A DNA stretch of 64,000 nt from a virus (Duplodnaviria > Caudoviricetes). Positions 45,701-52,059 of this stretch are shown piece after piece. Positions within the stretch are counted from its first letter, which is position 1; the number at the start of each line of letters is the position of its first letter. The notes under the pieces are model-generated. The model was not told the DNA's origin. It worked only from the letters and a program-made list of their open reading frames with translations, and did not search any database. The position numbers were made by a program, and so were the translations under genes. The DNA is taken from IMG/VR virus record IMGVR_UViG_3300028175_000001. The stretch is one strand, 5' to 3'.

Positions 45701-46611
45701 TTTAGTATACCATCTTCTCCAGGCATTACTACAGGTAGACTTGGATCAAGCGCATATTCATTTGGGAGATTTACAGTATCGTCACAATATGGAAGTTTTC
45801 CTTCAGTTGATAATATATTCCCGTATTCATCAGCTTTTTCATTTTTTTCTCCAGTAATTTCTTCTATAGGATCGTCAATGGGTCTATTGTTTTGGCCGGC
45901 AAGTCGAACATCAACTATGCCCTGACCAGGAGTGTCTGCACCCTGTACTGCTTGAGGATGTTTTGCGGGAGGATATGGCCCTCCCGCATGTAAATCCAAA
46001 GAACCAACTCCATCTTGACCATGCGCATTTCCTTGAGGTTTAAATATTTGCCCTCCAACACCTTCATTAACAAAAGCATCAACATCAATAATCGCATCAT
46101 CAAGAGTTTTTTTACTAAGGTCATCACGAGCAGTGTCTAGATATTCCATATAGTCTTTAGTGTTGCCTATAGCCTTAATGAGATGTTCTTTACATTGATT
46201 ATCACAATATTTATGAAAGTCAGAAGCAAACTGGCAATTACAAATCATTCCTTTTACATATTCTGCCTGTTCACCTGCTTCTGTTGTATAAGTAGGAGAG
46301 TCGTGTTCAACCATTCCTTCCAATTCTCTCAGAGTGTATTCAACAAGCTCATCAACCTTTTTGTCTTGATTTTCATCTACTTGAATATTTTGATGAGCAG
46401 TTGGCAATCCACCGGCCGGCTGACCTGTATCGGCCGTTAAAGTTTGACTATTCATATCCGTCAACATCTGTTGCTTTTGCAACGCACTTAATCCCAAATC
46501 TAATGACTTTAGTAATGTCATACCTATTGGCTGTGTTATTTCATCATCCAATAGTGGTGATAATGCGGCAATAGCGGCATTTGTGCATTCAATAACTTTA
46601 TTTTCACTCAT
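45697..46611 (-). CDS. Acidic hypothetical protein with Cys cluster (CNC...CDNQC)
   Basis: 304-aa ORF directly after radical SAM 3. Confidence 0.7.
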   Translation of the reverse strand: MSENKVIECTNAAIAALSPLLDDEITQPIGMTLLKSLDLGLSALQKQQMLTDMNSQTLTADTGQPAGGLPTAHQNIQVDENQDKKVDELVEYTLRELEGMVEHDSPTYTTEAGEQAEYVKGMICNCQFASDFHKYCDNQCKEHLIKAIGNTKDYMEYLDTARDDLSKKTLDDAIIDVDAFVNEGVGGQIFKPQGNAHGQDGVGSLDLHAGGPYPPAKHPQAVQGADTPGQGIVDVRLAGQNNRPIDDPIEEITGEKNEKADEYGNILSTEGKLPYCDDTVNLPNEYALDPSLPVVMPGEDGILK

Positions 46612-47956
46612 GATTTATCTCTCTGGGGAAATTTCTTTTTTGGGTTTCAAGCATTTCTTCTGCTATGTGATCTAAACCAGAACCCTGGCCAGAGGTATCT
46701 ATTATTCCCAATCTATCAATAGCAGTTGTCGGATGACCGGTTCTAGGCAATATTCTATTTTTTTCTTCTTTATCTCCTGCATCAGGAAGATGTTTCATTC
46801 CTTTTCCTACTCTCACTAATCCATTTTGTATTGATGCCAATCCTTGTTCTGTATAATAAAATCTATGATCTTTACGTTCTCCACAAGAATTACACATATC
46901 ACAAAACATGTGGCATACAGGAGAAAATAATTTATTTTTTATCCATTGTTTCCGTAAATAATCTATCTGTTCTTTTAATAACCAATTAATTTTTGCTTTA
47001 TCTTCGGGACTATCTTTACCCGCTAAACTTTCATCTATAGATGTAACAACTCTATCCGGTCCATATGTCTTGACTATACGCAAAATATCCTTAGCAAAAC
47101 ATTGTACATTTGATCTGTGAATAGTATACCTGGCCCTCCATTTAATTTGGTCTTGGGGTGGCATATTGGAATTATAATCTGAAATATTTTTAAATGCTTT
47201 TAATACATCTGGAGTAGAATCTTTACCAGAATAATATACCCTATCTAAATTTCCTGCACCATCAAAACTAATATCAAAAGAAACCCGTTGTTTAATTCCT
47301 GGATTAGATTCCAAAAAAGTAATAACACTATTAAAAAATTTTGGCTTACTTAAAAGTATACCATTAGTTGTTATATTGAAATGTAAATTGTGCTTCTGAG
47401 AATATGCATAATTCATAAGATATTCACAATTTTTCCATTCTAACATCGGTTCACCACCAAAAATACAAAATAAAGTTTGTTCATCTGGTCTATCGGTTTT
47501 ATTAATATCATCTACAAGTTTTTTCAACAATGGTGGTTCGGGTAAATGTTTTGGTCGATTTTCTAAATGTTCATAGCAATAAGAACAATTTAAATTACAT
47601 TGACTTGTCATATAAAATAAATGTATACCTCCACCGTGTGCAACTCTTGTATTTTCGTTTTCACCATGAGTAAAATGTCTATCCATAATTTCATTAACAT
47701 TGGCTTCTGCTAAATCAAGTCTTCCTTCTTTTAGTGCTTTAACACGGTCATAATGTTCATCTTTTGATACGCTTTCTACATGTTGTTTTACTACTTGATT
47801 CAATTCACGATCAGTTAGAGTTAATAATTTTTTAACATCATGTTTTTCATATTTACATACACCTTCTCCTGTTTTCAATCCTCGTTCATAATCAATAACA
47901 CCATCAAGAGATCCCATGGTGGGTAAAACTTTTTTAGAGCGTGTTAGTGTTTTCAC
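46604..47956 (-). CDS. Radical SAM enzyme 3
   Basis: CNLNCSYC, FGGEPML, TTNG and ISFDG; C-terminal CHMFCDMCNSC. Confidence 0.92.
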   Translation of the reverse strand: MKTLTRSKKVLPTMGSLDGVIDYERGLKTGEGVCKYEKHDVKKLLTLTDRELNQVVKQHVESVSKDEHYDRVKALKEGRLDLAEANVNEIMDRHFTHGENENTRVAHGGGIHLFYMTSQCNLNCSYCYEHLENRPKHLPEPPLLKKLVDDINKTDRPDEQTLFCIFGGEPMLEWKNCEYLMNYAYSQKHNLHFNITTNGILLSKPKFFNSVITFLESNPGIKQRVSFDISFDGAGNLDRVYYSGKDSTPDVLKAFKNISDYNSNMPPQDQIKWRARYTIHRSNVQCFAKDILRIVKTYGPDRVVTSIDESLAGKDSPEDKAKINWLLKEQIDYLRKQWIKNKLFSPVCHMFCDMCNSCGERKDHRFYYTEQGLASIQNGLVRVGKGMKHLPDAGDKEEKNRILPRTGHPTTAIDRLGIIDTSGQGSGLDHIAEEMLETQKRNFPREINHE

Positions 47957-50516: not shown

Positions 50517-52059
50517 ATTTGCTCTCTGTAGTTTCTGATCTCTTTGGTAAGCTTGATATATTAAAAACTGCACCTATATTCTTGGCCGTTTCTGAAGTGG
50601 GCTCTTTGGATAAACCAGATATAACAGGAGTTTGCTGTTCAATAGAATTGACTTCTAAATTATGACCCTGCGAATAATTTCCTGGTCTATTCATCATAAT
50701 TATTGAATCCGGATTCTTTTTAATCCACAGGGTTCTCCATGCTTTAGATACAGGCTCCAGTGTTTTCCATACTTGACACAATTGATGATTTGCTGGATGA
50801 TTTTGCCATTTTTTACCAGCATCCTGTTCTTCACCAAATTTTGCATCTGCGGCATCAAATGAACCCGCAGGACACTTTAAACAAAAATCCGCTGTACATG
50901 TATTACACGCTAATGTTCCATCTGTTCTAAATTCATCCAAATAAGAACGATATAATGATGTTGTTTCATCCACAAATTTTTGCATTTGCATACCAGATTC
51001 CATTAAATCGCCTCTTACATGATCCTCTCTTTGTCTATACATACACCCATGACAAGGATATGTTTTACCGTCTAAATCAATTGAAAGATAATTAATACCA
51101 GCCGCACAATTTTGTTTTTCTTTTCTGAACCATCTAAAGTGATTTTCTAAATTAATATCATGATCTATACTATATTTCACAATTTTCATTAAATTCACTC
51201 TTAGATCCTTTAAGTGACCCATATATTCTTCTTCCTTAACTGCACCATCAATTCTATCTGGATCTGTACTGTGAGTGTCAGGAGTGGGTCCATATGATTC
51301 TCCATTATCATAATGCCATTTCCAAACATCAAAAAGATATTTAAAATTGCGAGATGATATGACTGCTTTAATACCTATAGAAAAACCATCAGATTTTAAC
51401 TCTTTATAAGTTGCATAAACAGTTTTAGATAATTTTTCACTTTCTCCTGCTTTAGTTCTACGTTCCATCGTATTAACAGGTTCACCATCAAAAGATACTT
51501 GAATATGTAAACGTGATTGTTGCGGCATATCTAATCTATTTCCCAACAGACCTTTTAATTCTATTAACTGTTTTTTATACTTTTTAAGATAAGTTCCATT
51601 AGTATAGAACATAAAACATACTTTTTGAGTATCAGCCAATCTTTTCATTATATCTTTGCAAAAAAGAAAATTAGCAAAAGGTTCTCCGCCCCACCAATTT
51701 ATATTAATATCTCTATACCTATCCATATCCAATGACCTAACTGTTTTTTCTATATCTTCAGGAGTCATCTCTGTTTTTTCTTGATATTGTGATGACAATC
51801 CGCACGATTCTCCTTCAGAACAATATGTACAAGCAAGATTACATTCACTCGTTACATTAACATCTAAATTAAAACTTTGCATTGGATTAAAATTATTTGA
51901 CATTGCACCACCACCCTGTCCCTGGGGCATTGTTGATCCCCCCATCTGTTTTAACATTTTTTCTTGTTCTTCCATCGTTTTTCGCATTTGCATCATTTGC
52001 TGTTGCATTTGTTCGGGTGACATTTGTTCTTTTATAGGATCAAATCGGATATTATTCAT
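50509..52059 (-). CDS. Radical SAM/SPASM enzyme 1
   Basis: CNLACTYC, WWGGEP, YTNG, SPASM-type CAAG...DGKTYPCH and CNTC...CLKCPAG. Confidence 0.93.
   Translation of the reverse strand: MNNIRFDPIKEQMSPEQMQQQMMQMRKTMEEQEKMLKQMGGSTMPQGQGGGAMSNNFNPMQSFNLDVNVTSECNLACTYCSEGESCGLSSQYQEKTEMTPEDIEKTVRSLDMDRYRDININWWGGEPFANFLFCKDIMKRLADTQKVCFMFYTNGTYLKKYKKQLIELKGLLGNRLDMPQQSRLHIQVSFDGEPVNTMERRTKAGESEKLSKTVYATYKELKSDGFSIGIKAVISSRNFKYLFDVWKWHYDNGESYGPTPDTHSTDPDRIDGAVKEEEYMGHLKDLRVNLMKIVKYSIDHDINLENHFRWFRKEKQNCAAGINYLSIDLDGKTYPCHGCMYRQREDHVRGDLMESGMQMQKFVDETTSLYRSYLDEFRTDGTLACNTCTADFCLKCPAGSFDAADAKFGEEQDAGKKWQNHPANHQLCQVWKTLEPVSKAWRTLWIKKNPDSIIMMNRPGNYSQGHNLEVNSIEQQTPVISGLSKEPTSETAKNIGAVFNISSLPKRSETTESKYA

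Follow-up and report, generated by a model that had tools for sequence, protein, structure and literature searches.

What do three successive radical-SAM genes do in a T4-like phage, where they follow directly on a gene encoding tandem Cys-rich heptads? We addressed this question in a stretch of 64,000 nucleotides from the virus record IMGVR_UViG_3300028175_000001 (hereafter the window, to which all coordinates refer). The preliminary description had placed three different radical-SAM enzymes in series here, and their CxxxCxxC motifs together with their scores against Pfam PF04055 (Radical_SAM) confirm this. Exactly three ORFs of the whole window, all on the minus strand, combine the motif with a score above the gathering cut-off of 29.5 bits. 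We call them A, B and C. The span 46604-52059 additionally contains two genes absent from the preliminary description, x and y, between B and C. The features of the locus are as follows.

52063..52674, minus strand: Cys-heptad protein, 203 aa, presumed substrate, PHROG 26958
50509..52059, minus strand: radical-SAM enzyme A, 516 aa, SPASM-type, PF04055 45.0 bits
49188..50573 as listed, minus strand: radical-SAM enzyme B, canonical SPASM motif, PF04055 42.3 bits
48353..49174, minus strand: protein x, 273 aa, no known family
47956..48381, minus strand: protein y, 141 aa as listed, small conserved family between B and C
46604..47956, minus strand: radical-SAM enzyme C, 450 aa, without SPASM domain, PF04055 39.7 bits
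45697..46611, minus strand: protein z, 304 aa, no known family

Gene ends overlap or nearly abut from the heptad gene through C and further. The stop of the heptad gene lies 3 nt ahead of the start of A, the likely true start of B (ATG at 50516, giving ~442 aa) overlaps the stop of A by 8 nt, the stop of y and the start codon of C have one base in common, and the start of z overlaps the end of C. A scan for sigma-70 promoters and terminators between 44 and 58.6 kb gave counts equal to the shuffled expectation. The T4-type late-promoter word TATAAATA was not enriched either, with 7 matches in the window vs 12 expected; its minus-strand copies lie upstream of the sheath gene, the scaffold gene and one small gene, and none falls within 34.3-61.5 kb.

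In the presumed substrate, an N-terminal domain of 110 residues precedes 13 units of the form C-[PV]-C-[ND]-C-[ND]-[FHN], which hold 39 of the protein's 41 Cys residues. Across homologues the unit can be written C-[PT]-C-[NDQ]-C-[ND]-[YFH]: among 301 heptads from 50 proteins, position 4 is N, D or Q in 98%, position 6 is N or D in 97%, and 93% have an aromatic residue or His at position 7. Peptidase_S74 follows directly after the repeats in three heptad proteins, and the homologue encoded by gene 3-9 of the Campylobacter phage IBB_35 (AEF56812) is a 60-kDa protein that was detected in virions by mass spectrometry, an analysis in which no radical-SAM protein was detected. By analogy with these homologues, one found in particles and others bearing the fibre-type S74 chaperone, we take the heptad protein to be a particle protein. 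A complex prediction for a homotrimer (3 copies) scored 0.00, which counts neither for nor against such an assembly. A repeat with 43% Cys could also bind metals or form disulfides instead of being modified by the enzymes.

Three distinct enzymes and their nearest relatives

Pairwise BLASTP identity between A, B and C is just 25-33%, over 60-135 residues around the cluster motif, and they are therefore not recent duplicates, in agreement with the preliminary description. Reciprocal BLAST places them in three separate orthogroups. The cluster Cys are residues 73/77/80 in A, 33/37/40 in B and 120/124/127 in C, and a GGEP motif is invariant in the orthologue alignments of all three.

SPASM-type auxiliary Cys had been assigned to two of the enzymes, and A and B do each carry seven Cys that are invariant across orthologues. 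We used C-x(9-17)-G-x4-C ... C-x2-C-x5-C-x3-C ... C to define the SPASM subgroup. B follows this pattern with canonical spacing (Cys 274, 292, 325, 328, 334, 338 and 354; 19 orthologues) and A follows it with the central spacing C-x2-C-x4-C-x2-C (Cys 318, 336, 385, 388, 393, 396 and 428, with the G-x4-C hairpin; 18 orthologues). In A, a low-complexity N-terminus (residues 1-60) precedes the radical-SAM core and a SPASM-type domain with an invariant His337; most A and B orthologues begin ~12 residues before the first cluster Cys. Pfam PF13186 matched A with an E-value of 0.009, under the cut-off, and did not match B, while the profiles of both align through the SPASM region of CteB.

Enzyme C is built differently. 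The short CxxxCxxCxxC tail described for the third enzyme is present as C348-x3-C352-x2-C355-x2-C358, in which Cys 348, 355 and 358 are invariant and Cys 352 occurs in most of 15 orthologues. The seven-Cys SPASM motif is absent, ~110 residues of the SPASM domain are missing, and a profile alignment of C against B stops before the auxiliary Cys region. C comprises an extension (1-108), the core (110-345), the Cys motif (348-358), a beta-hairpin and a disordered tail. The N-terminal extension of ~110 residues noted earlier is real but lineage-specific, being common to the close relative L003 and missing in 13 of 15 orthologues, and it has low confidence in the AlphaFold2 model. About 123 clusters at 50% identity match C with E <= 1e-30.

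The best NCBIfam model for each enzyme is PapB (NF047865), at 75.4 bits for A, 135.5 for B and 62.9 for C, none of which reaches the cut-off of 340 bits; B matches the model over positions 5-318 of 330. CteB is the best solved structure by sequence and profile (E-values of 8e-29 for A, 7e-40 for B and 1e-20 for C), and it is also the best Foldseek match of the C model. The corresponding anSME profile matches have E-values of 4e-14, 1e-22 and 1e-9, and ChlB, SkfB and the epimerase EpeE are likewise found among the profile and fold matches. Scores against TIGR03974 (CteB, the SCIFF maturase) are 40 bits for A, 66 for B and 47 for C vs a cut-off of 425. TIGR04115 is among the better matches for B and C, at 52-70 bits vs a cut-off of 350. 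The CrpC family TIGR04463 is not among the best 25 NCBIfam matches listed for A or C, and B scores 38.6 bits against its cut-off of 525, so the phage enzymes are not CrpC family members. A housekeeping origin, which had been named beforehand as the contrary outcome, was not seen: anSME and QueE models score 31-47 bits vs cut-offs of 260-349 (TIGR03942, cut-off 349: A 34.5, B 46.5, C 32.4 bits; TIGR03963, cut-off 260: 31.3 bits, C alone). The nearest characterised relatives of A, B and C are thus the thioether-forming peptide maturases CteB and PapB, with scores far under all curated family cut-offs. We infer their chemistry from this remote similarity, 63-135 bits vs the PapB cut-off of 340.

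RRE or PqqD-like domains, which the preliminary description had suggested looking for, were found in none of A, B, C, x, y and z (Pfam and NCBIfam; AlphaFold2 models of C and y). The N-terminal RRE of CteB (residues 1 to ~100) has no counterpart in the profile matches, which start at CteB residue 99-102 (A, residues 102-433; B, residues 99-437). An RRE in the trio or in x, y and z is thus tentatively rejected, given the lack of a family match, the all-helical y and the low-confidence extension of C. A classical RiPP cluster combines a short precursor, whose leader can be cleaved off, with a recognition domain of the RRE/PqqD type and with a peptidase for the leader, an exporter or both. The locus does not have this composition, and Pfam and NCBIfam gave no match to a PqqD/RRE, peptidase or transporter family among the ORFs between 35.7 and 52.7 kb.

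The small neighbours x, y and z have no family in Pfam, NCBIfam or PHROGs. Homologues of x are confined to two close relatives, L003 and L092; in the window x has a paralogue at 37715-38515, and a weak Atlas lead points to SAM-binding folds (sub-threshold; the named clusters score < 0.9). Protein y, which likely starts at Met6, has the family motif G-H-L-F-x-Y-x-x-D and an AlphaFold2 model (pTM 0.29) that is all-helical, without beta-sheet. Members of its family occupy the same place, between B and C, in another 17 loci, representing 7 of the 15 lineages of A defined below; y is thus a frequent fourth component beside the trio. Protein z is found 3' of C in L003 and L092 only, and is therefore probably a lineage-specific accessory.

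Recurrence of the trio beside Cys-heptad proteins

Lineages of A were defined as clusters at 60% identity (n=15), and neighbours were counted within 10 kb. B is found near A in 14 of 15 lineages and C in 10 of 15, and a Cys-heptad or looser Cys-repeat protein is present in 11, including all ten that have C. In these ten, all three enzymes lie within 10 kb of one another. Similar pictures emerge when loci are seeded from other members. Starting from the heptad protein, homologues with 26-36% identity lie beside one to eight radical-SAM genes in 4/4 contexts; starting from representatives of C, the order B-C-A-heptad is seen in 2/4 loci. The genes sit among tail-fibre and neck genes. Radical-SAM genes or domains beside heptad genes vary in number from two to eight; one heptad locus has just A and B within 10 kb, and others have 4-8.

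Four of the 15 lineages have no heptad gene on the contig; most such contigs are incomplete, and one is an estimated 86% complete. The exact three-heptad DNA pattern had no match in five A-containing contigs without a heptad ORF, four of which have a completeness of 15-44%. In L036 most of the heptad gene is missing and a remnant ORF is all that is left, whereas the near-identical relative L022 has the gene.

The Campylobacter group II phages CP220, CPt10, CP21 and IBB_35 carry true homologues. Their heptad protein CP21_105 has heptads of the form C-T-C-[DN]-C-N-Y, and for each of A, B and C one of their radical-SAM genes is the best match. Unlike the contiguous cassette of the window, these genes are dispersed: the A-type gene lies ~3 kb from the heptad gene, and the B and C types are distant. 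The papers describing these phages read their 11-12 radical-SAM genes as aids to host metabolism, and noted a '21-bp repeat' CDS that was not linked to the radical-SAM genes (PMC2853527, PMC3322345). In our full-text literature search, no publication connected the radical-SAM genes of phages with virion proteins that carry Cys repeats; a cyanophage paper merely lists 'radical SAM maturase' as an antibiotic gene.

Proposed function and alternatives

The proposal that the enzymes tailor the Cys heptads, already raised in the preliminary description, is strongly supported by the conserved gene neighbourhood in many divergent phages. The nearest characterised relatives of the trio are Cys-thioether peptide maturases. 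Our main reading, to which we give a probability of about 0.6, is that a phage-specific three-enzyme cassette modifies the heptads of the adjacent virion or fibre-type protein, most likely by thioether bridges. Because the same trio goes with heptad proteins in numerous phages that are not related to each other, it is probable that phages cross-link one of their own structural proteins, with a chemistry hitherto known from bacterial peptide natural products.

According to this model, A and B (SPASM type) and C (with its short auxiliary Cys motif), often with the small helical y, would act on the heptads of the 52063-52674 product. They would form thioether (ranthionine-like) bridges by radical chemistry from heptad Cys to nearby side chains, probably those of Asn/Asp. 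The unit C1-[PT]-C3-[NDQ]4-C5-[ND]6-[YFH]7 offers two C-x-x-[N/D] pairs, C1 with residue 4 and C3 with residue 6. These pairs could fall to the two SPASM enzymes, with C5 left to the third enzyme, and the outcome would be a densely stapled rod kept in the phage particle. A possible scheme of one enzyme per heptad Cys fits the conserved trio but is not universal: the number of radical-SAM genes beside heptad genes varies, and a strict one-enzyme-per-cysteine scheme is therefore not general. A more ambitious version, speculative and in our view unlikely, is that A, B and C would each be dedicated to one Cys position and build a fully stapled ladder in which every seven residues hold three bridges, thioethers or related ones, possibly also between the chains of a trimer. 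This would yield a new, enzymatically cured material at the fibre tip, with y as a new substrate adaptor replacing the RRE.

Thioether stapling by radical-SAM enzymes has been described for small bacterial peptides and, since 2026, for one archaeal Cys-repeat protein, CrpA of Methanococcus voltae, a large protein on which ranthionine-type thioethers made by CrpC were seen by mass spectrometry (PMC13692751). The C-x-x-Q/D motif is the stated cue, C-A-V-D is among the motifs modified by CrpC, and the N-terminal domain of CrpA helps engagement by the enzyme (PMC13692751). The phage locus resembles this system in pairing a SPASM enzyme with a large protein that has a C-terminal tandem Cys-rich repeat and C-x-x-Q/D-type motifs, with the modification predicted here. 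However, CrpC is a single enzyme with an RRE, whereas the phage cassette has three RRE-less enzymes and a small helper; the repeat length is 17 residues in CrpA vs 7 in the phage heptad; and CrpC/CrpA are archaeal and cellular, whereas the phage heptad protein would belong to a virus particle.

PapB (freyrasin) and CteB (SCIFF; PDB 5WGG/5WHY) share the radical-SAM core with all three phage enzymes, and a SPASM domain that holds two auxiliary clusters with A and B. Their substrates are, like the heptad protein, Cys-rich, and have Asp/Asn/Thr acceptors. Unlike CteB, none of A, B and C has an N-terminal RRE, and C also lacks the SPASM domain. The phage substrate differs as well, being a predicted structural protein of 200-530 residues without cleavable leader, protease or exporter. 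The CXXX-repeat system (TIGR04114 target, TIGR04115 maturase) likewise pairs a tandem Cys repeat with a radical-SAM/SPASM maturase, but its Cys period is 4 vs C-x-C-x-C-x-x here, and its maturase is single.

SPASM enzymes also catalyse other reactions, such as Cys/Ser oxidation, C-C cross-linking and epimerisation. The trio might thus act on the heptad protein by non-thioether chemistry, which is the strongest of the competing explanations, at long but not negligible odds. Candidate reactions include an anSME-like oxidation of Cys to formylglycine or a thioaldehyde, C-C or aromatic cross-links that involve the position-7 Tyr/Phe/His, epimerisation, methylation and sulfur insertion, and some heptad Cys may be metal ligands. 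Although anSME, ChlB, SkfB and EpeE are among the profile and fold matches, CteB has E-values 11-17 orders of magnitude lower than anSME with all three profiles, and PapB is the top curated model throughout. C has a C-terminus unlike that of any characterised thioether synthase, with no SPASM domain, position 7 is predominantly aromatic or His, and the trio of L092 has oxygenase genes in between, suggesting mixed tailoring; yet the sole experimentally tested analogue that acts on a large Cys-repeat protein makes thioethers (PMC13692751).

It is improbable that the radical-SAM genes serve another substrate altogether, be it a small molecule of the PKS/desaturase/oxygenase island, nucleotide or DNA modification, or host metabolism, with the adjacency of the heptad gene incidental. 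In the window the trio does form part of a tightly packed run with type III PKS, PPTase, desaturase and 2OG oxygenase genes, but trio and heptad protein recur in loci without PKS, ACP or desaturase genes. Since the trio is also found where the PKS block is missing, we did not adopt a lipid or small-molecule substrate as the main reading, and this recurrence likewise speaks against the earlier suggestion of a split between peptide and lipid chemistry. Judged from gene content, the PKS/desaturase block is outside the radical-SAM/heptad module. The many radical-SAM genes of the Campylobacter phages, for which a part in host metabolism was suggested when they were described (PMC2853527), and the dispersal of the B and C types there would suit another substrate; against this stand the 10/10 lineages with A, B and C that have a heptad or looser Cys-repeat protein within 10 kb, and NCBIfam placed no QueE, MoaA, viperin or other small-molecule family model near its cut-off for the trio.

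Most improbable of all is a classical RiPP, in which the heptad protein would be a precursor with its N-terminal 110 residues as cleaved leader and its stapled core released as a bioactive peptide: an N-terminal domain, a repetitive Cys core and then radical-SAM/SPASM enzymes are arranged as in ranthipeptide clusters, but the cluster has no recognisable protease, exporter or RRE, homologues carry the S74 intramolecular chaperone of fibres after the repeats, the Campylobacter-phage homologue is a virion protein of 60 kDa, and the gene neighbourhood is one of tail fibres and necks.

Many unrelated phages, cultured Campylobacter phages among them, thus combine a fixed trio of radical-SAM enzymes, often plus a small helper, with a Cys-heptad particle protein. 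If our main reading is correct, this would be the first structural protein of a virion to be covalently cured by enzymes that use radical chemistry, and the puzzling excess of radical-SAM genes in Campylobacter phages would be accounted for, at least in part. The finding would also define three new radical-SAM subfamilies, of which that of C, with about 120 sequence clusters, has an unusual single auxiliary Cys motif, and would provide RRE-independent stapling enzymes for a simple, programmable repeat.

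Genomic setting and the three radical-SAM enzymes

The window comes from a T4-like myovirus. It has recognisable genes for sheath, tube, portal, prohead protease, scaffold and major capsid protein, and its large terminase (61966-63618) is ~57% identical to cyanomyovirus terminases. An accessory island sits between the portal and prohead protease genes. It runs from a fibre gene through a Cys-heptad protein gene and a radical-SAM span to a putative Asp/Asn beta-hydroxylase, an SDR and a type III PKS, and further on to a PPTase, desaturases and several oxygenases. The longest contig with the heptad protein measures 204 kb. 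All genes of interest lie on the minus strand:

52854-56750, minus strand: collagen-like fibre, 1298 aa, in the island
52063-52674, minus strand: Cys-heptad protein, 203 aa, in the island
50509-52059, minus strand: enzyme A, CxxxCxxC and Radical_SAM
49188-50573 as listed, minus strand: enzyme B, CxxxCxxC and Radical_SAM
46604-47956, minus strand: enzyme C, CxxxCxxC and Radical_SAM
43974-44756, minus strand: Asp/Asn beta-hydroxylase-like protein (PF05118)
40274-41050, minus strand: 2OG-Fe(II) oxygenase

G+C over 46-52 kb is 0.30-0.34, like the rest of the phage; the local value of 0.49 at the fibre gene is due to the fibre itself. This gene, directly upstream of the heptad gene, encodes long Gly-x-y tracts, mostly with Ser, Ala or Thr, and a C-terminal region weakly matching Peptidase_G2, an intramolecular-chaperone autocleavage domain. 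Three small genes (166, 195 and 128 aa; 34269-35718) close the island at its other end. Their homologues in L003 and L004 lie between the fibre and heptad genes, and in L005 a homologue of one of them stands between the heptad gene and the enzyme trio; they may encode fibre-assembly partners.

Exactly three ORFs of the window, A, B and C, combine CxxxCxxC with a Radical_SAM match above the Pfam cut-off. The probable start of B is the ATG at 50516, within ATGCCTAG, a sequence that also ends A. Pairwise BLAST identity is 25-33% and limited to 60-135 residues around the cluster motif, so these are old, distinct lineages and not recent duplicates, as the preliminary description had held. Orthologue alignments reveal seven invariant auxiliary cysteines in A and seven in B. 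Their spacing is canonical SPASM in B; the central spacing in A is C-x2-C-x4-C-x2-C, with an invariant His beside the second auxiliary cysteine. The auxiliary motif of C consists of C-x3-C-x2-C-x2-C alone, three of its four cysteines being invariant, and the profile alignment of C to B covers the radical-SAM core and ends before the auxiliary region. Motifs and alignments thus agree with the earlier picture of SPASM-like cysteines in two enzymes and a short Cys tail with an N-terminal extension in the third. The extension of C (110 residues) and its 70-residue tail occur only in the window lineage and L003, and are of low confidence in the AlphaFold2 model.

All three score below the curated cut-off of every NCBIfam model. 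The ranthipeptide maturase PapB gives the highest scores for each of them (75, 135 and 63 bits for A, B and C; cut-off 340), and other peptide maturases come next. Membership of the housekeeping families anSME or QueE, raised earlier together with action on unrelated substrates, is contradicted by scores of only 31-47 bits, where the cut-offs are 260-349. Among solved structures, the SCIFF thioether synthase CteB is the closest, whether single sequences or family profiles are compared (profile E-values 8e-29, 7e-40 and 1e-20 in the order A, B, C), with anSME far behind (4e-14, 1e-22 and 1e-9). The model of C is confident at residues 110-378, and Foldseek ranks CteB first, then anSME, TigE, ChlB and SkfB. 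The matches to CteB begin at its residue 99-102, past its RRE domain, and most A and B orthologues start ~12 residues ahead of the first cluster cysteine; by these alignments the enzymes are without an RRE. A, B and C thus belong to the peptide- and protein-modifying SPASM/twitch neighbourhood, outside every described family.

Conservation of the enzymes with the heptad gene

In a close IMG/VR relative (L003/L013), the order heptad-A-B-x-y-C-z is kept at 55-70% identity, x, y and z being three further ORFs. We examined four unrelated contigs whose heptad-protein homologues are only 26-36% identical. A 157-kb freshwater T4-like phage has three consecutive radical-SAM genes ~1.5 kb past the heptad gene, beside neck genes; a 67-kb contig surrounds it with eight; a 500-kb phage contig flanks it with one per side; and a 223-kb contig has four radical-SAM domains straight after it, two of them fused in the 741-aa protein described below. 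Enzymes of these contigs sort into types A, B and C by reciprocal BLAST.

Scanning IMG/VR with the A alignment gave 79 loci, classified by script and grouped at 60% identity into 15 type A lineages. Within 10 kb of A, B was present in 14 of the 15, C in 10, y in seven and a Cys-heptad protein in 11 (in L027, a looser Cys-repeat protein). All ten lineages with C had a heptad or Cys-repeat protein near A, and four of the five without C lacked one. Where C occurs, the genes mostly run A-B-y-C-(130-aa ORF)-heptad, the last being present in as many as four tandem paralogous copies. A C profile search retrieved ~123 clusters (50% identity) at E <= 1e-30, plus multi-domain fusions; two of four C-seeded contexts read B-C-A-heptad, one was dispersed and one was a short contig. 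Beside one heptad gene (L009:11522-13747), a 741-aa protein comprises two fused radical-SAM domains, and representative proteins P0132-P0187 (700-1300 aa) contain two to four C-type-related stretches; multi-enzyme fusions of the cassette therefore exist.

Among 185,579 prokaryote species genomes, type A is limited to four MAG contigs. In the best match, L092 (PAAV01000055.1; 161 kb) from a Chloroflexota MAG, the fibre, the heptad protein and the complete cassette are all present, 43-68% identical to their counterparts in the window; the contig is apparently that of a T4-like phage, placed in a bacterial genome bin. In 50,697 phage records, matches to A and C are confined to the 15 of Campylobacter group II (Firehammervirus-type); B also matches these 15 and gives eight weak hits (23-26%) in human-faecal phage contigs. 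Each Campylobacter record has a separate best-match gene for A, B and C, the A-type gene lying ~3 kb from the heptad gene.

More distant phage radical-SAM genes also adjoin other Cys-repeat proteins (L037:2148-4052 and 11234-12328, L040:9401-9964, many of L041-L091), whose repeats include C-S-G-C-S-G, C-T-C-T-C-T and D-C-S-C-N-S-D-C-A-D-G-C-G and whose N-termini bear similar I-x-A-x-H...L-R...E-x-x-R-R motifs. The heptad module seems to be a single branch of a theme more widespread among phages.

The stop of y (141 aa, 47956-48381) shares one base with the start codon of C, and members of its family occupy the gap between B and C in 17 other loci, with an invariant H-L-x-x-Y-x-x-D core and no cysteine. 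Its model, of low pTM with the motif in a low-confidence loop, is all-helical and thus no RRE-like winged helix; y may serve C as an adaptor or be a further substrate itself. Proteins x and z are restricted to close relatives. For x (273 aa, 48353-49174) and its paralogue (266 aa, 37715-38515) no family was found, and the leads that an Atlas feature search gave, to SAM-binding folds (MTHFR_C/DUF6919, TYW3), all stay below threshold; an x homologue immediately follows the heptad gene in L092.

The heptad protein and its probable place in the virion

The heptad protein consists of a 110-residue N-terminal domain and 13 units. The consensus derived from 301 units in 50 proteins reads C-[PT]-C-[NDQ]-C-[ND]-[YFH], position 4 being N, D or Q in 98% and position 6 N or D in 97%. 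In three homologues the repeats are directly followed by a Peptidase_S74 intramolecular-chaperone domain, the hallmark of trimeric phage fibres and spikes, and further homologues end with S-D-x-[RQ]-L-K, the start of this domain; this would place the repeats at the C-terminus of the mature protein. IBB_35 gene 3-9 (AEF56812; 534 aa), the homologue in a Campylobacter phage, is among 38 proteins that mass spectrometry found in purified virions, at 2.6% coverage, in a list with zero radical-SAM proteins (PMC3322345, Table S2). Timms et al. described 11-12 radical-SAM genes and an in-frame 21-bp repeat in CP220 and CPt10, leaving them unconnected (PMC2853527).

The three to four tandem paralogues after A-B-y-C in L017:13798-16362 and L026:9501-11558 each end in C-x-C-N-C-N-Y units and S-D-E-x-L/V-K. 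The 21-bp repeat array (52075-52339) differs in copy number among near-identical phages: 13 heptads in the window versus 11 in a 93%-identical protein (compare P0002 with P0003). Most of the heptad gene is missing from L036 compared with near-identical L022.

Proposed modification and its alternatives

The conserved neighbourhood argues strongly for a link between the enzymes and the heptad protein, and so for the heptad tailoring proposed in the preliminary description. Its alternative, a split between peptide and lipid chemistry, fares worse. The genes at 38512-43996 (an 83-aa ACP-like protein, an SDR, a type III PKS/KAS III, an AcpS-type PPTase and fatty-acid desaturases, with further TauD and Rieske-type oxygenases) form a phage-borne polyketide or lipid block, but of the other cassettes examined only that of the closest relative comes with PKS, ACP, PPTase and desaturase genes, so these lie outside the radical-SAM module.

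PapB forms Cys-to-Asp links, and each heptad holds two C-x-x-[N/D] pairs. In CrpA, the one large Cys-repeat protein tested, C-x-x-Q/D motifs are the predictive cue, and the SPASM enzyme CrpC turns C-A-V-D among them into ranthionine-type thioethers (PMC13692751). We infer the thioether chemistry and its assignment to heptad positions: A and B would put Cys-to-Asn/Asp thioethers at two positions, and C, perhaps with y, would then alter the remaining cysteine or carry out another kind of step, leaving part of a virion protein densely stapled. We give this reading a probability of roughly 60%. Interspersed among the heptad gene and the trio in L092 are an Asp/Asn beta-hydroxylase-like gene and a 2OG oxygenase (5489-6295 and 12056-12808) as well as x-type genes, and L005 has a 2OG oxygenase after its trio; Asn/Asp hydroxylation is therefore a reasonable candidate for an extra step, and the window's two counterparts may act at heptad positions 4 and 6.

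That the enzymes perform some other SPASM chemistry is possible but less likely, PapB and CteB being the best matches of all three. An unrelated substrate is improbable given the conserved neighbourhood. A released RiPP is improbable too, the Campylobacter-phage homologue being found in virions and others carrying the S74 domain after the repeats.

Radical-SAM/SPASM modification of Cys-rich repeats is already a known kind of chemistry; a full-text literature search returned no description of a phage radical-SAM/heptad module. What is new here is a fixed set of three enzymes without an RRE, the helper y, a short type C bearing just one auxiliary motif and, as the presumed substrate, a protein of the virus particle.
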